Part shown: in pieces, positions 31,058 to 44,432 of the stretch
Position numbering within the stretch: position 1 is the stretch's first letter
How the letters are laid out: each line of letters starts with the position of its first letter
Assembly (NCBI GenBank): GCA_963664115.2
Contig: CAXWPJ010000005.1
Coordinates: 96,001 to 160,000, forward strand
Reading direction: 5' to 3'
Source: Terriglobia bacterium
Lineage (GTDB): Bacteria > Acidobacteriota > Terriglobia > 20CM-2-55-15
Length of the DNA stretch: 64,000 bases
The notes under the pieces: generated by a model
Database searches by the model: none
Seen by the model: the letters and a program-made list of their open reading frames with translations, nothing else
What the model was told of the DNA's origin: nothing
Program-made: the position numbers and the translations under genes

Positions 31058-34000
31058 TTAGAAGATGAACTTCAGAGCGAATTGCATGATCCGAGGGTCC
31101 TCTGCCCCCCGAATTTGGCCGAAGGTGTTGCTTCTGTCGTGGCGCACCTGCGGAGCGTCGAACCGCGTGCTGTTGGTCAGGTTGAACGCTTCGGCCCGGA
31201 TTTCAAGCCGCTGCGCTTCCGTCAGCTGGAACGATCTTGACAGCGCCACGTCGAGTCCCCACCTGCCCGGGGCCCGAACGGCGCCCGCGCCCAGATTGCC
31301 CAGTGTACCGAGTGCCGGCGTCTCAAACGCGTCGGGGTTGAGATAGTTCTTAGGGTCGTTCTTGTCCCCATAGACATTATCCAACACCACATTGGGGCGT
31401 TGGTCGCGCATGAAGTTCCGCGCGGGGTCCCGGCGGTTCGTCACGGTTAACGCTCGACCCGTGTTGATCCTGAGGATGGGCGACAGCTGCCAGCCGGATG
31501 CGAGGACCTGCAGCGCCCGGTTGTTGAACTGCGGCGTCGCGGCCACTCCGGACAGATTGAAAAGATGCCGCGTGTCCCGGGCCGCAACCGAGCAGTCGCC
31601 ACGGCCGAACCTGCGGTTGTTCGCATCAATCCAACCGTTATCCGCGTTGCCACCGTTCACAACGTCCTGCTGCGGGTCGGTGATGCAATGGGACCAGGTG
31701 TAGTTTGCATTGAAGGAGATGCCGCTCACAGGGCGTCGCTGAACCGAGAGGACCAGACCGTTATAGCTGGCCGTGCCCCCGCTGTCGATCCGGCCTATGA
31801 TGCCGTACTTCTCCGAGATACTCTTGGGTACCACCGGGAAGATCGCCAGCATGCGCCGATCTATGCGATTGGACGTGGTTCTCGAGGAGCATTCCCTGCC
31901 CGGCCTGACCGTGAAATTAACGGTCGCCCCGTTCAAAAAGCAGTTTCCGTTGGCGTCGCCATTACCTGGAACGAAAATCACAGGATTGATATGCTGCGTG
32001 CCCCACAGATGACGTGTGGTGTTGCCGATGTAGTTCGCCTGTACCATCCAGTCGTTTCCAAACTGTCTCTGGACGCTCAGGTTCCACTGGGCCACCTTCA
32101 TGTTCGGCGTGTCGAAATCCATGGCCGTGGCGATGCCGTTATTGGTCCATGGTAGATCAACGGGAACGCCCCCACCGAAGGGCACCAAGCCCGGATCTCC
32201 GCCGGGGTGGTCCGCCCAGGGGTCCTCCCAATCGATATCGTCCAATTGAATCCGGTTGTTCCAGGGTGGCACGGTCGTCAAGCTCCGCTGGTAGATCGCG
32301 GCCGGATAGTCATAGAAGGTTCCCAACGACGCCCGAACCGAAGTGCGGCCGTCTCCGTTGACGTCCCACGCGAGCCCGACGCGCGGGGAGAAATTCTTCC
32401 ACTGATTGTTCTGCCCCTGGCCGTCCGGGAACCCGGGGTCCCCGTCGAAGGACAGGCCCGGCGGCGCGTTGATAAAGCGGGCGGTCTGGACGCCCGCTAG
32501 CATATCCGCCGCGCTGAAGTGAATCGAGGTGCCGTCCGTGTTGACCTGCGGGAAGAAGGGCTCCCACCGCACGCCGTAATTCAACGTCAGATTCTGAGTC
32601 ATCCGCCAGGTATCGGCGAAGTACATGTTGAAGTACTTGGACCGGTTGTGCTGCTCGATCGGGGCGCCGATTCGGAGTCGGGATGCCCTTCCCAGGAGAA
32701 AGTCCGCCAACCCCAAACCCGTCGTTTGGCCGTTGAACGTAAACGGCGCGGAATTGTTGGCGGTTGAAGCCGAGTCGATCCACCACCAGGCCGACGACAC
32801 GCCGAAGCCCAACTGATGGTCCCCGCTGATGACGCTCACATCATCGTTGAACGCGAACATGTTCATCACCATGGGCCCTACCGCGGTACCCACATCGAAC
32901 CCACCGTCGACATCAATGTTGGGAGTTTCCGGCAACATAAAAAATGACTTGATTCCCAGCAACCCGTTGCCGCAATTGCAGTTCGAAAAGTCCGGGCCGG
33001 TCTTGCCGCCGTCCAGATCATTGCCCGTGATGCGGAATGAATTGACGATGTTGGCGCCAAACAGATAGGTGCTCCCCAGCGTAAAGGCCTGGACCTGCGC
33101 GTCCGCCCCGTTGTTCACACTGAACAGGTTCTGGTTCAGGTCGAAGCCGGTCGGCACAAGACGGGATTCATACAAATACCGGGCAAACAACGAGTGGTTG
33201 TTGGTCACCTGATAGTCGAGCCGGCCGATGACCGCCTCAAAGTCGTCGTGCAGGGGATTGCCGTAGCTGACCTCGCCGCAGGGATCGTTCGACGACTGCA
33301 GAAACGACGCGAACTTGACAGCGGCAGGGCTGAACAAAGCCGGGTCGATCTGATTGTTGACGAACGGTGCATCAAGTGTCACCGCACGCCGGTTGCATCC
33401 GGCCCCGGCGAAGTCCCTGAAATCGCCGGCCAGCATTGCCTGGGTGGGCACAAACGCAAATTCTGCCGCAGGGTCCTGCCGGATCCGCGTCCCCTGGTAG
33501 CCCGCAAAGAAGAAGAGCTTGTTCGGGACAATGGGCCCGCCGATCGTGCCGCCAAACTGGTTGCGCTTGATGGTGTCGCGCTCTTTCTCGAAAGCGCCCC
33601 GAGCGTTGAACTTGCCATTCCTCACAAACTCGAACAAATTGCCATGGAACTGGTTCGTTCCGGATTTCGTCACCAAGCTCACGGTGCCGGCGGATTTCAC
33701 GCCCCCGGTGGCCGACGTGGCGCTGGTCTCGACCTTGAACTCCTGCATCGCGTCGGGAAACGGCATCGACAGGTAGGAGCCCTGGAAGGGGTTGTTGTGG
33801 TTCGCCCCATCCAGTGTGTAATTCAGTGCGGAGTTCAGCCCGCCGGCGACCGACACATTACCCCTGGCAAAGGGGTCTCTACGACTGCCCGTCAGCGTTG
33901 CCGCCGGGGCGACGCCGCCCGCCAGGGCGATCAACTCCACCACCGAACGCCCATTGAGTGGGAGTTCCAGAATCCGCTCATTCTCGATGATCTCCCCCAC

Positions 34001-34399
34001 GCCGATCGCCCGCGTTTCCACAAGCGCGGCGTTGGCCTGAACTTCAATGGTCTGCGTCACCTGTCCCACTTCCAACACCACGTTGATGACCGGAGTGGCG
34101 TTGACCTGCAGGACAATTCCGGTCTGCAGGAACGTCTGAAATCCCGGCAAAACCGCTTCCAGCTGATACGGACCCAATGGCAGGGCCGGCAGAATATAGG
34201 AGCCGGTTTCGTTCGTCACGACCGTTCGGGGGGCACCGGTGTCGGTTTTGGTAGCGGTCACCTCCACGCCAGGTATTAAGGCGCCGGTGGCATCGGTCAC
34301 GGTACCACCGATTTGAGCCGTCGCCTGCGCCCATACCGTGACACAGCTGAAAGCCAGAACCAGCGAAATACTGAATAGACTACTGAATCTACACTTCAT
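31058..34399 (-). CDS. TonB-dependent receptor with carboxypeptidase-regulatory-like N-domain (Oar-like)
   Basis: GTVTDATGALIPG, LPLNGR, TKSGTNQFHG, NFSPRVGLAW, C-terminal PRIMQFALKFIF; start ATG 34399 with GGAG RBS. Confidence 0.92.
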   Translation of the reverse strand: MKCRFSSLFSISLVLAFSCVTVWAQATAQIGGTVTDATGALIPGVEVTATKTDTGAPRTVVTNETGSYILPALPLGPYQLEAVLPGFQTFLQTGIVLQVNATPVINVVLEVGQVTQTIEVQANAALVETRAIGVGEIIENERILELPLNGRSVVELIALAGGVAPAATLTGSRRDPFARGNVSVAGGLNSALNYTLDGANHNNPFQGSYLSMPFPDAMQEFKVETSATSATGGVKSAGTVSLVTKSGTNQFHGNLFEFVRNGKFNARGAFEKERDTIKRNQFGGTIGGPIVPNKLFFFAGYQGTRIRQDPAAEFAFVPTQAMLAGDFRDFAGAGCNRRAVTLDAPFVNNQIDPALFSPAAVKFASFLQSSNDPCGEVSYGNPLHDDFEAVIGRLDYQVTNNHSLFARYLYESRLVPTGFDLNQNLFSVNNGADAQVQAFTLGSTYLFGANIVNSFRITGNDLDGGKTGPDFSNCNCGNGLLGIKSFFMLPETPNIDVDGGFDVGTAVGPMVMNMFAFNDDVSVISGDHQLGFGVSSAWWWIDSASTANNSAPFTFNGQTTGLGLADFLLGRASRLRIGAPIEQHNRSKYFNMYFADTWRMTQNLTLNYGVRWEPFFPQVNTDGTSIHFSAADMLAGVQTARFINAPPGLSFDGDPGFPDGQGQNNQWKNFSPRVGLAWDVNGDGRTSVRASLGTFYDYPAAIYQRSLTTVPPWNNRIQLDDIDWEDPWADHPGGDPGLVPFGGGVPVDLPWTNNGIATAMDFDTPNMKVAQWNLSVQRQFGNDWMVQANYIGNTTRHLWGTQHINPVIFVPGNGDANGNCFLNGATVNFTVRPGRECSSRTTSNRIDRRMLAIFPVVPKSISEKYGIIGRIDSGGTASYNGLVLSVQRRPVSGISFNANYTWSHCITDPQQDVVNGGNADNGWIDANNRRFGRGDCSVAARDTRHLFNLSGVAATPQFNNRALQVLASGWQLSPILRINTGRALTVTNRRDPARNFMRDQRPNVVLDNVYGDKNDPKNYLNPDAFETPALGTLGNLGAGAVRAPGRWGLDVALSRSFQLTEAQRLEIRAEAFNLTNSTRFDAPQVRHDRSNTFGQIRGAEDPRIMQFALKFIF

Positions 34400-34785
34400 T
34401 AATATCTCCTCCACTGAGAGAGCAAGCTGGATCGCGGCCACTCTTATTTGGCGAGTGGCACGCTCTCCTGCTTGACAGGCATCCCATCAATCTCACTGCA
34501 CTACATTTACACGAAACTTCGGAAAACTATACCCCACCGGGGTATGGTGTGCAACCCAAACTAAGGTGGCGCGGGAAGAGGTCTATTTCAATTTTCTGTG
34601 GGGCCCATAGACGCCGTTCGAGGCGGGAATCGCTTTGGACCGGAGATGCCGGGCATCAAGCTGATGAAAAAGGAGTTATACGTCAGGATGGGGAACGCTG
34701 AAACCCAAAGCAATTGGGTTTCAGCGAAGATCAGACCATTTTCCCAGAGTCAGTCGCTGAGAGAACGGCTGGGCCGTCCTCTCTA

Positions 34786-35877
34786 TTAGTCTGAAACGGG
34801 AGTTTTACCCAACAGTCGATCTAGTGTCGCCATGGGTCCGGCCGTATCCCAACCCTGCGGGCCGGGAAGCGTCTTGTGACGCACGACACCATCGGAATCG
34901 AGGACGTAAATGCGATCGGGGAAAGCGGCGTAAGTAATCTCAACCGCGTTGTCAAGCTTGTCGAGAACCGTCGGAAAACTCAGATCGAGGCTCGTCGTAC
35001 AGAGCTCCGCGACCGCTTCCCGCTGGTCATAGGTTTCTGTCTGGTTGACCTGGAGGCCACCGACGATGTTGCCCGGATGGGCCTCTTCGATGTAGACCAT
35101 CAGGAAATTAGCCTCATCCTTATACTCTTGATACCAATCTTCGGTGTCACCGACACCGGCTACGAAGGGGCCTCAGGTGTAACTCCCGAAGATTAGAACT
35201 GTAGGCCTGTTCCACAATGAGGACAGCTGGAGTTCTTTGCCGCCACTCATCCGGTTCAGGGCAAAGTCCGGTGCCTGATCGCCAATACCCGGGCCACGTA
35301 CGACCCGCAGCGAATCGTCGGCTTGCCGGCGGAATTTGCTGATGAACCGGCCGTTCTGCTCAACTGTGTCACCACCGCTCTTGGGCGTGAGAGACAGGGC
35401 ATAATCCGATTTGAAAGTCACCCAGGGCAGCTTGTCGAACTCGTTTCGAAATCCTCCGACCGATGAGTAGGCTTCCGACTCTTCATCGAACACCAGTTCC
35501 GCCGTGAATTTATCGAACACCTCGGATGCGGACAGCAGGGAATCACCCGCTTTCGTGTCGGGCAAATCCGAATGCTCCGGCAACTGCAAGTGGGCGTCAT
35601 AGGTGAACATGAACTGGACTGTTTCCCCATCCCCCGCGGCAAAAGCTTCAGCCCACTGGTCCCGCTGTTTGCGAATGCCGGCAACGTCGACCGAATCGAA
35701 CACGTCCGCCGGTACATTACCCATTTCCTGGGTTCCAATGAACACCGCATCCGGATCCCAGATTGTGTCTTCGTTCAGAACTGCGCTCGAAGGCACTGAG
35801 TTGGTCGCCACCTGATCCGTTGCCGTACAGCCTGCAACAACGGCCAGTAGGACGACGAGGCTTGCAGGAAATCGCAT
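34786..35877 (-). CDS. Predicted selenoprotein (363 aa): lipoprotein, NTF2/SnoaL-like domain + iodothyronine deiodinase-like domain; UGA 35173-35175 read as Sec
   Basis: ORFs 35173-35877 and 34786-35100 are in frame; joined they read PTVLIFGSYT-U-GPF...FLMVYIEEAHP...YAAFPDRIYV, matching deiodinase FGSCTUPxF / YIEEAH; SECIS-like hairpin follows the UGA. Confidence 0.88.
35139..35172 (-). promoter_or_regulatory. Bacterial SECIS-like element
   Basis: UGA-GGCCCCUUCGUAGC-CGGUGUC-GGU-GACACCG: perfect 7-bp stem with a G-initiated apical loop 22 nt after the UGA. Confidence 0.78.
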
Positions 35878-36174
35878 GAGCTACCTCACTGGTGATGATT
35901 GCTTGTTTTCAGTCACGAAACTACAGTGCCAAGAACATTATCACCTGCCTATTAAGCGGTCAATATTTTCGCGATACGGTCCTGGGTCGGGCGAGAATCC
36001 TGTTCGTGGTCTGCCTCCCATGCTGAATTTTCTGGGCCCGGTAAACGGCAGTGGTTGGACGGACCGCAGACCTCCGAATTCATGGACGAAGAAAAGGGTT
36101 CCCGGCGACGGCCCATCTTGAAGAATCAGTGCGTCGCTGTTGTCTCTCGAAGAATTTAAGGAGAATATAATCCG

Positions 36175-36423: not shown

Positions 36424-37290
36424 ATGCAAAATCGAATCGCTGCCTGGATCGTGGCTGTGGTGTCGGTCCTGTGCCTGTCGGCCGCGCTGTCCCAGACGGT
36501 TCATGCGCAAGTCGACAGCGACGGCTGGAGGCCCTGCCCGCGCTGCCAGAACAATGCGGCCAGAGCCGAAGCCTGGGAAGCAAACAGAATCGACGAGATA
36601 ACGGAATACGACCGGCGTGATCTCACGGGCGTCTGGGGTTTTAACGGCGTAGGCGGGGCCTTCAGGAACAACGCGCCTCCGTTTACAGCTTACGGACAGG
36701 AGCTCCACGAGCAAACCCTGGGAGTGATGCCTGCGAACGGCAGGCTCCGCTACAATCAGGGCTCTGAGAAAGACTACTCCCTGCTGAACTGTAATCCGCT
36801 CGGCAACCCACGGCTGTATAACTACAACTACGGGTTTGAGTTTGTGATGCTGCCCGACAGGGTGCTCCAGTTCTGGGAATTGGATCACACCTGGCGCACC
36901 ATCTGGACGGATGGGCGGAGGCTTCCCGAGTTTGCCCCGGTCCCGAATTGGCTGGGGTGGAGCATCGGGCACTGGGAAGAGGACACCTTCGTTATCGAGT
37001 CCACCGGCTTTGATGAGCGCTCGTGGATCGAGAGAACCCCCGCCCGTGACGGCATGCCTGGCGGCGGCTACCCCCACTCCGAAGAGATGCGCGTCGTGGA
37101 ACGTTACACCCGCGACACCTACGGAACGCTCGAAGCTGACCTGACGATAACCGATCCGATGGTTTATACCGAACCGTGGGTAACGCCGACCGCCAGCATC
37201 GTGCTGGTTCCAGGCGCGGAACTGTGGGAGCATTTTTGTGTGCCGACAGAGTCGGACGCGTTTAACGAAGATTTCAGCGAAAGTGACTGA
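36424..37290 (+). CDS. Exported hypothetical protein (DUF6152-partner family)
   Basis: DLTGVW, CNPLGNPR, RTIWTDGR, GWSIGHWEEDTFVIES, HSEEMRVVERY, DPMVYTEPW, EHFC. Confidence 0.82.
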   Translation: MQNRIAAWIVAVVSVLCLSAALSQTVHAQVDSDGWRPCPRCQNNAARAEAWEANRIDEITEYDRRDLTGVWGFNGVGGAFRNNAPPFTAYGQELHEQTLGVMPANGRLRYNQGSEKDYSLLNCNPLGNPRLYNYNYGFEFVMLPDRVLQFWELDHTWRTIWTDGRRLPEFAPVPNWLGWSIGHWEEDTFVIESTGFDERSWIERTPARDGMPGGGYPHSEEMRVVERYTRDTYGTLEADLTITDPMVYTEPWVTPTASIVLVPGAELWEHFCVPTESDAFNEDFSESD

Positions 37291-37416
37291 CAGCCAGGTG
37301 CGATGGCTCCGTTGACCCCTGCATCTGCGCAACCGGTTAAATTGTTGACAGGTCAGTGGTCCCGGTGCTTATATGAGGTATGTAAAGTAATGGTATTTAC
37401 TTACAGGAGGTTTGTT

Positions 37417-37815
37417 GTGGATATTCGACGAGGATTGGTGGTTCTGGCAGTTGTCGTGGCGGTCTCTTCCATGCTCGGTAGCGTGGCTCTGGCGCACCAC
37501 GCCCGGTCTGCCTATAGCGAAGAAGATGTAACGCTTGAGGGCGTTGTGGTCGGTTTCACGTGGAGAAACCCGCACGTTCAACTCGCGTTCGACGTGACGG
37601 ACGAAAATGGCAAGACAGAAACCTGGAGAGGCGAATTGTCTGCTGTTACCTCGATGATTGCGGCAGGGCTGAATCGAAACACCTTCAAGGCGGGCGACGC
37701 GGTCAGGGTCGAGGCTCGGATCGCAAATTCCGGCGAGCCTTTTGCCGTTCTCGGTTCGCTCTGGAAGGATGGCACGAAGATTCTCGACGGTGAATACCGA
37801 AGCGAGACTCGCTGA
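37417..37815 (+). CDS. DUF6152-like exported protein
   Basis: ALA-HHA, GVVVGFTWRNPHV; GTG 37417 with AGGAGG RBS. Confidence 0.82.
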   Translation: MDIRRGLVVLAVVVAVSSMLGSVALAHHARSAYSEEDVTLEGVVVGFTWRNPHVQLAFDVTDENGKTETWRGELSAVTSMIAAGLNRNTFKAGDAVRVEARIANSGEPFAVLGSLWKDGTKILDGEYRSETR

Positions 37816-38060
37816 GCCGATAACAGGAACCTCCGAAAATACCTCGTCCGGGTATCCGGCTGGATCGCCTGGGCGAGGTTTTTCTTGTGCCCGAGAGCAC
37901 CTATCCTTCCGCTAACGCCACTTTGAAAACATCACCTTTCTAACTCCTTCCTTTTCTCAAAACCATTCTAATGTTCGCTCTGCATTTTCGAAGATGTTCT
38001 GTGCTGCAATAATGAAAATTCCGGGTGCTATACTCGGCGCTCATAGAGGAATTCTGTTGC

Positions 38061-38912
38061 ATGCAGATCGATCCTAAAAAGTGTGTGGCCTGTGCGAATT
38101 GCGTGACTGTGTGTCCGATGAGTGCAATCTATGTCGACACAGTGGCGAACCGCGCCAAGATCGACTACGACGAGTGCGTTGAGTGCGGATCGTGCTACCG
38201 CGGAATGAGCCAGGAGCATCTGAATCCGACCCTGGTCCGCGCGGTGCGCGGGCTCGCTAAGCTATTTCGATTCCGATTTGATCCGGAGCCGGACGTGTGT
38301 CCGACCGGAGCGTTTGTGATGGAAGATCTGGAATGGCCTCGGATTGCCCGCCGTGTGTTCAGCGACCCCGTCGTCGAGCACAAATCCACCGGGATCGCGG
38401 GACGGGGAACGGAGGAGGTTAAGACCAACGATGTCGCGCATCGGATAGGCGTTAACGAAGTCGGCTACGTCATCGAGTTCGGTCGACCCGGAATCGGTGT
38501 CCGATTCCACCAGATCCAATCGATGACGCTGGCGTTGGCCCGTATCGGAGTCGCTTTCGAAGCAAGTAACCCGATTACGCATTTGATGATCGATCAGGCT
38601 AGCGGTGCGCTCCAAGAGGATCTGCTCAACGAGAAGATTCTCTCAGCCATCGTCGAGATCAAAACACCACTCGCGGAAGTGAAGACAGTGCTCCACACGG
38701 TTTCGGATGTGGCGAAACAGATCGACACAGTCATCGCTGTCGGTGTGTCCACACGGTGCGACGAAACCGGAGAAGATCCTCGACTGGCACCGCTGCTCGA
38801 AGAACTCGGCTATCGCTTCGAACGTGCCAAGACCAACATGGGTCTGGGGCGGATCACCAACCTCGAGCTTAGGGAGGGTCAGGGTGACCAACACCTTGCA
38901 TCGGTCCGGTAA
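38061..38912 (+). CDS. 4Fe-4S dicluster-domain protein with uncharacterised C-domain
   Basis: CVACANCVTVCP and CVECGSC...VCP; GRGTEEVKTNDV, EFGRPG; ATG 38061 with AGAGGA RBS. Confidence 0.82.
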   Translation: MQIDPKKCVACANCVTVCPMSAIYVDTVANRAKIDYDECVECGSCYRGMSQEHLNPTLVRAVRGLAKLFRFRFDPEPDVCPTGAFVMEDLEWPRIARRVFSDPVVEHKSTGIAGRGTEEVKTNDVAHRIGVNEVGYVIEFGRPGIGVRFHQIQSMTLALARIGVAFEASNPITHLMIDQASGALQEDLLNEKILSAIVEIKTPLAEVKTVLHTVSDVAKQIDTVIAVGVSTRCDETGEDPRLAPLLEELGYRFERAKTNMGLGRITNLELREGQGDQHLASVR

Positions 38913-39555
38913 GGCAGACAGCTTCCGGGACGACTACATCATTTTCGCCATGCCGTCGAGGGGCAAGAATGATGTGGGGGCCATAAGGAAGCTCAAAAGC
39001 TTTCTGAAGATTTGTATTCGGCACGATCCGTCGAACATCGGTGCCTCCGGTCAGAGCAGCTATCGCCCCTCGAGCAACCTCAACCCTACCGTTCACTGGA
39101 GACGGGATATCGATCCTGACTTTGAAGGTGTCGTCGAAGGCGTGACAAAAAGTGGAACCGCGGCTGCCGTGTTCGACTCGCGTGAGAAGGCCGTGGCCTG
39201 CCTCCGCGATGTTATCGACCAAGATATGGGGCTCTCGATCAACATCAGCACCTCCGTAGACGGTGCCAGGCAAGCGGGCCTTCAGTGTGGCATCCCACGT
39301 CACAGCGTGGAGTACTCGCTCGGGTTTACAGACCCGAATGACCGTCTGCCGCGGGGTCAGATTCTCGAACTGGCCACGATGTGTGGCCACGGAATGGTTT
39401 CCTTCAACCTGGCGCAGAAGATGATCGACATGGTGCGGGAAGGCCGGCGGACTCCGGCCCAGGCCGTGGCCACTCTGACTCGTTTCTGCCCGTGCGGTGT
39501 CTACAACCCTTCGCGCGCGATCCGGTTGATCGAAGAAGCCTTAAGCCACCAGTAA
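38884..39555 (+). CDS. Hypothetical Cys/His-motif protein, partner of the Fe-S protein
   Basis: GTG 38884 with GGAGG RBS; TNTLHR, HSVEYSLG, MCGHGMV, CPCGVYNP. Confidence 0.75.
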   Translation: MTNTLHRSGKADSFRDDYIIFAMPSRGKNDVGAIRKLKSFLKICIRHDPSNIGASGQSSYRPSSNLNPTVHWRRDIDPDFEGVVEGVTKSGTAAAVFDSREKAVACLRDVIDQDMGLSINISTSVDGARQAGLQCGIPRHSVEYSLGFTDPNDRLPRGQILELATMCGHGMVSFNLAQKMIDMVREGRRTPAQAVATLTRFCPCGVYNPSRAIRLIEEALSHQ

Positions 39556-42660: not shown

Positions 42661-43019
42661 TCTTGGCCCCTCTCTGTTTTCTTCCCGTGCACGAAGAAAA
42701 AGCGAACAGAGCTTGAAAATGGATGTCCGGCCTTTCCCAGCTTGAGCCATACCGGATTCCATCACCCTGTCGGGCGCATCCCCATCCTGTATTGCGCGGC
42801 AAGAGTTCAGATGCGGTTTGAGGATTATAGAATTGGTGCAAACATATCAATTGACACATAAAGATCGAGGATACTAGCATGACTTCGCATTGAATCTCAG
42901 GAAGACCGATGTCACACTGTGAACTGGCGTAGGCCACTCGAGCGAGTCGCACTTCTAATCGCCATTTTATCAGTTTAGAAATTTCCGGACATCGGACTTC
43001 ACGAGTGAAGGAGAGAGAA

Positions 43020-43472
43020 ATGAAACGTACTGTAATTGCACTGTTGGGATTCGCCTTCGTTGTCACGGTCGGGTCGATAGGTGCAGAACCCCTGCTCGCC
43101 CATCACGGCCGCGGGAATACTTATGAGACAGACGGGACGCACGAGATTCACGGTATTGTGAAAGAGGTGCGGTGGCGCAATCCCCACATCGCGTTCCTGG
43201 TCGATGTGACGGACGATAGCGGCGAGGTGGTCACCTGGGTTCTCGAGCACAGCAACGTCAGCACGCTCGCGCGCCTGGGCTACGGCCGGGCCACTTTGCG
43301 GCCCGGAATGGAAATAGACGTTGTAATGAATCCGTGCACCATGGACCGAACGTGCGGGCTTAACAGGGGCGTCACCCTGGAAGACGGTACGCAGATCTTC
43401 CTGCGAGGGGTGTCCGACGAAACGCCCGGGAGGCTCAATCCGCTTGGCGACACCCGGCAATCAGTTAACTAG
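43020..43472 (+). CDS. DUF6152-like exported protein
   Basis: LLA-HHG, GIVKEVRWRNPHI; ATG 43020 after AAGGAG. Confidence 0.82.
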   Translation: MKRTVIALLGFAFVVTVGSIGAEPLLAHHGRGNTYETDGTHEIHGIVKEVRWRNPHIAFLVDVTDDSGEVVTWVLEHSNVSTLARLGYGRATLRPGMEIDVVMNPCTMDRTCGLNRGVTLEDGTQIFLRGVSDETPGRLNPLGDTRQSVN

Positions 43473-43562
43473 CAGCGGAATCGCAAAGCTTAAGGCGTAT
43501 GGATCGTGCGCCTAGATATTTTGATTGTAAGAAATTGGAAGAGTTGATTTAAGGAGTCCCAA

Positions 43563-44432
43563 ATGCGAAATCGTTTAATGAGTTTTCTAGGCACCGTGGT
43601 GGGTTCAGCTTCCCTCCTGGTGGTTCCTGGTGCATTCCTGACGACATTTGCTCCGGTGGCTGCGGCGGAATGTATGGAACCGCAAAGCGGAGATGCCCGT
43701 GACTTTTCGGGGATCTGGTACCGCGACGAAGGCGATTGTGGTTTTGGCCCGCCGGGAAGCGCCCCGGACCTGACGCCGGACGGTGTAGAGGCGCTCATGA
43801 AGAACGTGCCGACTCGGCCCCGACATCCTCTGCATCTGGAGCGGGTGGGGGGAGATGAGAACGGCGCCGACTTCAAGCTATCGAACGACCCGGCCATGCA
43901 ATGTAATCCGAAAGGCCTGCCCCAGATGGTCGTCGATACGGCGCATGATCATCACGAAGTGGTTCAACTCGATAACAGAATCATTCAGCTCTGGCAGGAA
44001 GAGCGCTTGCCTCGAGAAATCTGGTTCGACGGTCGGGCGGTCCCGTCAGGCGATGACCTCCTGAACCTCGGACCTTCCTGGTATGGCATGTCGGTGGGGC
44101 ACTGGGAAGGCGACACCCTCGTTGTCGAGACGGTGGGACTGGATCCCCGGGCCTGGGTCGACATATACGGATACCCGAAGAGTGAAGACGCCCGCTTAAT
44201 CGAGCGCTACACCCGGCGTGGGGATACATTGGAAATGGTAGCCACGCTGATTGATTCAGCCTACTACACAGAAGATTGGGTTTCCGACACCAAGACATGG
44301 ACGTTGGAGCCGTCCGATGCGATAGCGGTCAACAATTTCGGCTGGTACGGGGTATACCCCAGTCTCGTCGATCTACTGTGTGCACCGATCAATGGCGACG
44401 GATCGGCGTCCAATCCTTTCGGTGGCGACTAA
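43563..44432 (+). CDS. Exported hypothetical protein (DUF6152-partner family)
   Basis: DFSGIW, DPAMQCNPKGLP, REIWFDGR, GMSVGHWEGDTLVVET, SEDARLIERY. Confidence 0.82.
   Translation: MRNRLMSFLGTVVGSASLLVVPGAFLTTFAPVAAAECMEPQSGDARDFSGIWYRDEGDCGFGPPGSAPDLTPDGVEALMKNVPTRPRHPLHLERVGGDENGADFKLSNDPAMQCNPKGLPQMVVDTAHDHHEVVQLDNRIIQLWQEERLPREIWFDGRAVPSGDDLLNLGPSWYGMSVGHWEGDTLVVETVGLDPRAWVDIYGYPKSEDARLIERYTRRGDTLEMVATLIDSAYYTEDWVSDTKTWTLEPSDAIAVNNFGWYGVYPSLVDLLCAPINGDGSASNPFGGD

Follow-up and report, generated by a model that had tools for sequence, protein, structure and literature searches.

A predicted selenoprotein gene of Terriglobia that joins a lipoprotein NTF2-like domain to a bacterial deiodinase-like domain

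A family of bacterial deiodinase-like selenoproteins was predicted in 2005 by Zhang, Fomenko and Gladyshev (PMC1088965), who also describe a small apical loop bearing a G as a feature of bacterial SECIS elements. Reviews from 2022 and 2026 still list the family without a reaction and give its motif as UxxC (PMC9312934, PMC13188914), and we found no reaction assigned to these proteins in the literature searched. Animal deiodinases are described as recycling through their proximal cysteine (PMC12025243, PMC7506546, PMC9141512, in part). In the 2-Cys glutathione peroxidase PtGPX5, the resolving Cys92 sits in the helix equivalent to alphaD (available part of PMC7506546), and a TlpA-to-peroxiredoxin pathway of the envelope has been established in Caulobacter, where ScsB–TlpA feeds PprX (PMC3322552, in part). 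Among the papers listed by a literature search of mostly open-access main text, none described an NTF2, SnoaL or DUF4440 domain fused to a deiodinase domain; sequences of this kind may already be included in genome-wide tables of selenoproteomes.

We describe such a fusion in a window of 64,000 nt from a Terriglobia bacterium (contig CAXWPJ010000005.1, positions 96,001–160,000). A standard ORF list splits the gene into 35173–35877 (234 aa) and 34786–35100. The first-pass annotation had proposed, leaving the strand unstated, that the two ORFs are one frame broken by the TGA at 35173–35175, and this was borne out on the minus strand. The plus strand of 34786–35877 is closed to translation, and reading from 35877 to 34786 with TGA as selenocysteine (U) gave a single 363-residue frame with one internal TGA, U235 (35175–35173). 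The translation places this TGA at the deiodinase catalytic position, in the context IFGSYT-U-GPF followed by YIEEAHP and YAAFPDRIYV, all as previously annotated. Judged from its sequence, the gene very likely makes a selenocysteine-containing, membrane-anchored two-domain enzyme with the following features.

34786–35877, minus strand: whole gene (lipoprotein, NTF2-like, deiodinase-like) with one in-frame TGA and a TAA stop at 34788–34786, from the translation with TGA as U
35883–35887, minus strand: ribosome-binding-site-like GAGGT, 5 nt 5′ of the ATG, from the sequence
35827–35877, minus strand: predicted lipoprotein signal peptide, lipobox VAG/C17, from the pattern, the kept lipobox and signal peptidase II in the genome
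35302–35697, minus strand: remodelled DUF4440/TIGR02246 (NTF2-like) domain, residues 61–192, from profile, Foldseek (3rob) and model
34813–35301, minus strand: deiodinase-like thioredoxin-fold domain, residues 193–355 (PF00837, 72 bits), from profile and structure matches
35173–35175, minus strand: TGA at the catalytic position, predicted Sec235, from the kept TGA and contigs
35142–35158, minus strand: SECIS-like 7-bp stem with a GGU loop at +22 to +24, from conservation
35077–35094, minus strand: YIEEAH motif (Dio3 Tyr197, Glu200, His202), then a shortened omega loop that lacks the DGW Trp, from the alignment
34999–35001, minus strand: Cys293 in helix alphaD, candidate resolving cysteine, from the alignment, the model and comparison with PtGPX5 Cys92
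31058–34441, minus strand: downstream TonB-dependent receptor gene, a neighbour only, from the gene list, Pfam and comparison of loci

Whether the TGA is read as selenocysteine is the central question, and the genome is well equipped to do so. The assembly (4.9 Mb, 97% complete) holds all four components that the first-pass annotation had proposed to search for, each above its cut-off: selA (432 bits), selB (384), selD (360 bits) and tRNA-Sec, that is, selC (71.6). Its selD itself has an in-frame TGA. Of the 35 genomes in one Terriglobia family, 10 carry the fusion, at 11 loci in all: nine are intact (in eight genomes) and two frameshifted (G001 and G003, of the window's genus). Four more loci come from metagenomes, and the contig scan yielded at least one full-length relative. 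TGA stands at the Sec codon in 11/11 genome and 4/4 metagenome copies, hence in 15 of 15 fusion DNA copies, and tRNA-Sec was detected in 32 of the 35 family genomes, including all 10 carriers. Across the class, a deiodinase-like match was obtained in 87 of 401 genomes (among them the unpublished G655, which enters no other result), and each of the 94 matches listed includes a TGA, counted anywhere in the match and not by position.

We consider it very improbable that the TGA is a true stop (with the gene split into two proteins or decayed to a pseudogene) or that it arose by a sequencing error. Database entries do call the two halves separately, the hairpin described below is not significant on its own, and there are frameshifted copies among kin. 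Against this, a stop would cut the thioredoxin fold precisely at the catalytic residue in every copy, and contigs from other runs carry the same codon. Runs X2 and X5, which belong to two studies, have contigs that cover the gene from end to end with a single differing letter, at 35252; because both keep TGA, and not TGC or TGT, the codon is not an assembly error, although X2 or X5 may be the source of the window DNA, so that they exclude an assembly slip but do not count as independent strains. A piece from run X20 was not counted as bridging the TGA, as it extends only 25 letters past it on one side. Cys forms of the deiodinase-like domain are also known (P0013–P0015, without the N-domain), and the catalytic site of Dio3 aligns with the TGA. 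No Cys form of the fusion turned up among 18 matches, 7 matches or the best 150 of 378, in searches that were not exhaustive.

Among homologues, this column is TGA in the 15 DNA copies and Cys in P0013–P0015, but Gly in one cluster, so that an outcome named as refuting by the first-pass annotation (neither Cys nor TGA) is seen in part. There, P0009, P0176 and P0177 replace U-G-P-F with G-G-G-F in a full frame that keeps Cys293; one relative thus has a sense codon and reads through, which also argues against a true stop. Two cluster mates of these Gly variants end at the TGA site, and DNA for the variant was not found in 35 genomes. In the three proteins, Gly occupies both the Sec column and the position of the following Pro, and they represent either a natural Sec-less control or a pseudoenzyme. 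The annotation gap is systematic, in that 15 database entries of the N-terminal half end at the Sec codon. Taken as a sequence-based prediction, SelB would almost certainly read the stem-loop and insert selenocysteine, in a chain exported and lipidated at Cys17.

The proposed SECIS element, a perfect hairpin (CGGUGUC-GGU-GACACCG) at 35158–35142 whose loop begins 22 nt past the TGA, is present as annotated. Its stability did not exceed that of shuffled sequences (z 0.33), and stability was dropped as evidence in favor of conservation. A crude scan of the genome found 440 TGA sites that pass a hairpin-plus-motif filter; since the hairpin is unremarkable alone and such sites are this numerous, support for the element rests on its conservation. 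Across 16 related sequences (11 fusions and five EF-hand paralogues) the 7-bp stem was 99.1% paired, compared with 10%–56% for slid controls, and two stem pairs are altered on both sides. As the 16 sequences are kin, these double-sided changes probably represent two events and not ten. Among 25 conserved degenerate codon columns, just two (Val GTC and Asp GAC) show the same codon in every one of the 16 sequences, and both lie in the stem, where the silent base of the Thr codon tracks its pairing partner. The stem pairs 7/7 in the four metagenome copies. Pairing and silent-site constraint in relatives thus support the annotated element.

The same genome (G000) has three further TGA genes of the deiodinase-like type. 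One is an exported EF-hand fusion that shares the stem-loop (C12:268523–269032, minus strand), another is a copy frameshifted just 5′ of its Sec codon (C12:263859–264308, plus strand), and the third is a membrane-anchored U-P-V-F-C form (C2:768548–768976, plus strand). Eight sites picked by eye from the crude scan are likely hidden selenoproteins (C2:701068+, C9:74840−, C7:70656−, C5:202820+, C10:243789+, C12:463339−, C2:141203+ and C2:360043+). We take their motifs to be peroxiredoxin-, DsbA-, arsenate-reductase- and SelW-like. At C2:360043, a DUF3179-like gene with U-V-V-C immediately precedes a TlpA-like gene.

Residues 1–17 form a lipoprotein signal. The lipobox noted earlier (VAGC) places Cys17 after a hydrophobic stretch, and the pattern is kept in 21 of 22 fusion-type N-termini; with a signal peptidase II gene in the genome, lipidation is predicted. 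The N-terminal domain had been described as NTF2/SnoaL-like, a suggestion that profile homology, Foldseek and the model uphold even though the domain scores below its family cut-off. DUF4440 matched weakly in all eight aligned fusion members (best E 2.7e-6; 15.8 bits against a cut-off of 25.2). A profile of the domain finds stand-alone relatives at E 4e-13, among 378 proteins, and two of three such relatives tested pass the TIGR02246 cut-off. Foldseek matches the domain to 3ROB (E 6e-5), and the order of helices and strands in the model agrees with an NTF2-like fold. The VIA rows cover residues 179–362 only, and the fold assignment therefore rests on the DUF4440 matches, the profile search and Foldseek.

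The likeness to the DUF4440/TIGR02246 (SgcJ/EcaC) NTF2-like proteins, with PDB 3ROB as the structure, is thus one of profile homology and fold, and 55 of 98 stand-alone relatives are also predicted lipoproteins. The fused domain differs in that it continues directly into the thioredoxin fold and in its residues: compared with 42 stand-alone relatives, it has lost the Arg-Gly pair and the Trp, Lys and Asn of the last strand, which are replaced, and has gained invariant Phe89, Phe91 and Phe178. Because polar residues are lost and Phe gained, the domain is likely non-catalytic, serving as a rigid hydrophobic pocket or dimer surface that would select or present a substrate.

The fusion forms a single clade, seen in the 10 carriers in one Terriglobia family and in sponge-metagenome data. 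With only 5–10 candidates scored per genome, none was found in 366 class genomes of other families or, outside the family, in 400 phylum genomes; the latter yielded five stand-alone-type matches, of which four were inspected and none was fused to a deiodinase domain. All or part of the stretch occurs in 20 runs from nine studies, and three of these runs are labelled sponge metagenome; runs with small word shares were left out of the habitat reading. In three RNA runs (two studies), contigs match part of the gene and part of the TonB receptor, although contigs cannot show transcription, strand or level.

The C-terminal domain was correctly described as deiodinase-like: it matches PF00837 at 72.1 bits (gathering score 27) and aligns with Dio3. 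Its score against NCBIfam NF038285 (deiodinase_rel) was 151.2 bits, under the 250-bit cut-off, as was that of the EF-hand paralogue (236.7). Animal deiodinases match its sequence far better (E 1.4e-36) than does any thioredoxin or peroxiredoxin (best E 5.5e-10), with Dio3 and Dio2 the closest solved structures. A first structure model was poor (pLDDT 61.5) and was replaced by one built from 63 sequences (pLDDT 78.2, pTM 0.78). The better model has no low-confidence linker between the two domains, which are therefore predicted to pack rigidly. Searches with the modelled C-domain gave Dio3 (Z 17.6, rmsd 4.0, 174 aligned), DsbE of the DsbE/TlpA type (Z 17.6, rmsd 1.9, 138 aligned), Bcp1 (Z 17.3, rmsd 2.2, 141 aligned) and AhpE (Z 17.3, rmsd 1.9, 142 aligned), which are ties at the level of this model (Z 17.3–17.6).

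In a tree of 28 domains, without any animal sequence, the 13 NTF2-fused rows formed one supported clade (96/91), with six EF-hand-fused paralogues as its sister. The two share U-G-P; the Gly after Sec that had been flagged as unusual is real, and it is common to the EF-hand paralogue clade. A 7-residue loop deletion is common to ten tree rows. Like the bacterial deiodinase-like family as described, the window protein has a PF00837 match, a catalytic Sec and a SECIS with G in a small loop; it differs in its lipobox and NTF2-like fusion, its U-G-P-F, its shortened omega loop and its 151 of 250 bits against NF038285. On sequence grounds, we conclude that this is a real selenoprotein gene with a new architecture within a known orphan family.

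We compared the active site with Dio3, using numbering counted from the alignment, conservation counts over 23 bacterial domains and residue roles from the available parts of PMC12025243, PMC7506546 and PMC9141512. The window protein and animal Dio1–3 (PDB 4TR3, 9H48) share the thioredoxin/peroxiredoxin fold with the deiodinase insertion and the S-x-T-U and Y-x-x-E-A-H motifs. Equivalents of Dio3 Ser167, Thr169, Tyr197, Glu200, His202, Gln218, Arg225 and Arg260 are kept; Ser232, Thr234, Tyr262, Glu265, His267 and Arg286 correspond to Ser167, Thr169, Tyr197, Glu200, His202 and Arg225, respectively. In contrast to the animal enzymes, Cys239 is absent, His219 is replaced by Thr and Arg275 by Pro, the Trp207 equivalent falls in the 7-residue omega-loop deletion, and a lipid anchor and NTF2-like domain take the place of the membrane helix. 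Dio3 Cys168 is also missing, its position being Tyr in 19 of 23 bacterial domains and Cys in none; Tyr for the proximal Cys, earlier regarded as unusual, is thus normal in the bacterial branch. Because none of the 23 has Cys there, this branch cannot recycle through a proximal cysteine. Nor has any of the 23 a Cys three residues past the site (U-G-P-F in the window protein), from which it follows that the tabulated UxxC motif describes another branch.

Another cysteine may take over this role. Cys293, which the animal enzymes lack in helix alphaD, is present in 21 of 23 bacterial domains, lies within helix 283–295 of the model and is the sole cysteine of the mature chain besides that of the lipobox. 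From the genetic features above (frame, TGA, machinery, stem-loop, lipobox and two domains) we infer every chemical step of the following cycle. Sec235 would be oxidised by its substrate, which, by analogy, could be peroxide or a related small oxidant, an identity we hold at slightly less than even confidence. Cys293 would then quite probably capture oxidised Sec235, in the manner of 2-Cys glutathione peroxidases, forming a selenenyl sulfide that a periplasmic CxxC thioredoxin would reduce. A TlpA/ResA-type thioredoxin, itself fed by CcdA, could recharge the enzyme. We give an even chance to this reading as a whole, an envelope Sec/Cys293 reductase acting on peroxide-type oxidants and recycled by CcdA–TlpA.

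The position of Cys293 and the lack of a proximal Cys are in agreement with such a cycle, as is the near-equal structural match to Dio3, DsbE/TlpA, Bcp1 and AhpE. As in the 2-Cys glutathione peroxidases (PtGPX5; available part of PMC7506546), the catalytic residue lies at the beta1–alpha1 turn and the second Cys in an alphaD-equivalent helix. The window protein differs from these enzymes and from PprX in having deiodinase motifs, Sec and an extra domain but no GPx signature, and its LIFGSYTU, with Ser at −3 and Leu at −7, departs from the peroxiredoxin PxxxTxxC(U) motif (as defined in the accessible part of PMC13188914). Several points weigh against a peroxide-type reductase: the sequence is far nearer to animal deiodinases, with the Ser/Thr/Tyr/Glu/His network intact; alphaD of Dio3 has been argued to be rigid (PMC7506546, in part), and a resolving role for Cys293 needs this helix to unwind; the three full-frame Gly relatives still keep Cys293; and two same-genus copies are frameshifted.

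The gene neighborhood bears on the electron donor. The first-pass annotation had linked the gene to the downstream TonB receptor, a link that proved weak. The receptor starts 344 nt downstream and is adjacent in only two of 11 other loci compared, both of the same genus, and promoter and terminator matches were at chance level; an operon was rejected on these grounds, and the receptor is probably not part of the system. At a metagenome locus (L114), a WCAPC TlpA/ResA-like gene ends 14 nt upstream of the fusion; within 4.5 kb there are also genes for a thioredoxin and for CcdA, as well as an ECF sigma/anti-sigma pair. At another (L115:765–2135, plus strand, cut by the contig end), a lipobox, WCAPC thioredoxin, NTF2-like and deiodinase-like domain with TGA are in one frame, directly downstream of a DUF3179 gene. 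Elsewhere in the window genome there are a CcdA-type gene and five matches to TlpA-like proteins, one of them 49% identical; a TlpA-like protein is encoded at G000:C2:186079–186624. Together with its export signal, the TlpA-type neighbor or fusion in these two relatives likens the protein to the envelope ScsB/CcdA–TlpA–PprX pathway of Caulobacter (PMC3322552, in part) and favors the CcdA–TlpA-fed reductase. On the other hand, this link comes from two of the 15 fusion loci, which share one assembly, and 12 other loci checked did not show it; PrxL, a peroxiredoxin-like client of TlpA/ScsB, is reported to lack detectable peroxidase activity.

Other gene pairs recur around the locus. A 4Fe-4S protein overlapping a second gene with Cys/His motifs and no Pfam match (window 38025–39555, plus strand) also flanks the locus in G001, G002 and G003, and in G003 it adjoins a remnant of the selenoprotein gene. 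Two alike pairs, each an exported protein without a Pfam match plus a DUF6152-type protein (window 36424–37815 and 43005–44432, plus strand), lie in the window; in G022 and G025, related pairs precede the fusion gene.

The first-pass annotation had inferred a reductive dehalogenase or redox enzyme; for dehalogenation we found no direct support, with five Dio3 equivalents missing. Under this alternative, which we consider unlikely, Sec235 would take iodine or bromine off a halogenated aromatic that the NTF2-like domain helps to hold, with the same Cys293/TlpA recycling. It draws on Dio3 and Dio2 as the nearest solved relatives by sequence, on the six residues that match the Dio3 network, on the packing of the two domains without a flexible linker (pTM 0.78) and on a long-loop sister copy in G002 (C1:731480–732508) that keeps the loop Trp and the His219 equivalent. 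One sponge-metagenome run holds six pieces at least 99% alike to the stretch, and sponges produce brominated metabolites (PMC12203066, in part), making bromo- and iodotyrosine derivatives candidate substrates. In the window's subgroup, however, the omega-loop deletion removes the Trp207 equivalent, with Thr for His219 and Pro for Arg275; scanning the neighbors brought up no recognisable gene for a dehalogenase or halogenase, and the 2005 paper expected a function other than thyroid-hormone deiodination (PMC1088965). Deiodinase-like TGA genes are, moreover, class-wide (87/401), and a sponge-specific chemistry is therefore not suggested. In its fullest form, in which a sponge-associated Acidobacterium strips bromine or iodine from host tyrosine metabolites between the NTF2-like pocket and a Sec235 recharged by CcdA/TlpA, we find the proposal decidedly doubtful.

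Sec235 and Cys293 could instead reduce disulfides, sulfenic acids, sulfoxides or selenium groups (e.g., selenoneine) in proteins or small thiols, as an envelope repair reductase. Pro320, invariant in 23/23 domains, occupies the Dio3 Phe258 position, which we take to be the thioredoxin cis-Pro site. Among the structural matches, folds of the DsbE/ResA type share the top rank, and periplasmic methionine sulfoxide reductases fused to TlpA are known. At L113:4922–7104 (plus strand), senA–senB, both above their cut-offs, begin 12 nt downstream of the fusion orthologue. We nevertheless rate this role as rather unlikely: the active site has no CxxC/UxxC pair, and senAB adjacency occurs at one of 15 loci, the senA-like gene of the window genome lying elsewhere (C4:129910–131157), with senB not matched by the L113 query.

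A ligand-binding or sensing lipoprotein, in which selenocysteine is dispensable or a regulatory relic, would account for the full-frame G-G-G-F variant in three database sequences whose mates end at TGA, for the polar residues lost and Phe gained in the N-domain, and for the ECF sigma/anti-sigma pair at L114. It appears improbable given that all 15 DNA copies retain the TGA, Cys293 and a stem-loop under silent-site constraint, and that the Gly form is one lineage whose DNA was not found in 35 genomes.

A candidate resolving Cys, a candidate electron donor to which gene fusion points, and a soluble lipoprotein that carries a pocket-type domain together allow the whole cycle to be set up in vitro, which would give the bacterial family predicted in 2005 its first testable mechanism. 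If peroxide reduction holds true, deiodinases would be tied to a peroxidase-like ancestry; if halide release does, this would be a new kind of bacterial dehalogenase, cobalamin-free and flavin-free, showing the reaction from which the thyroid-hormone deiodinases arose.
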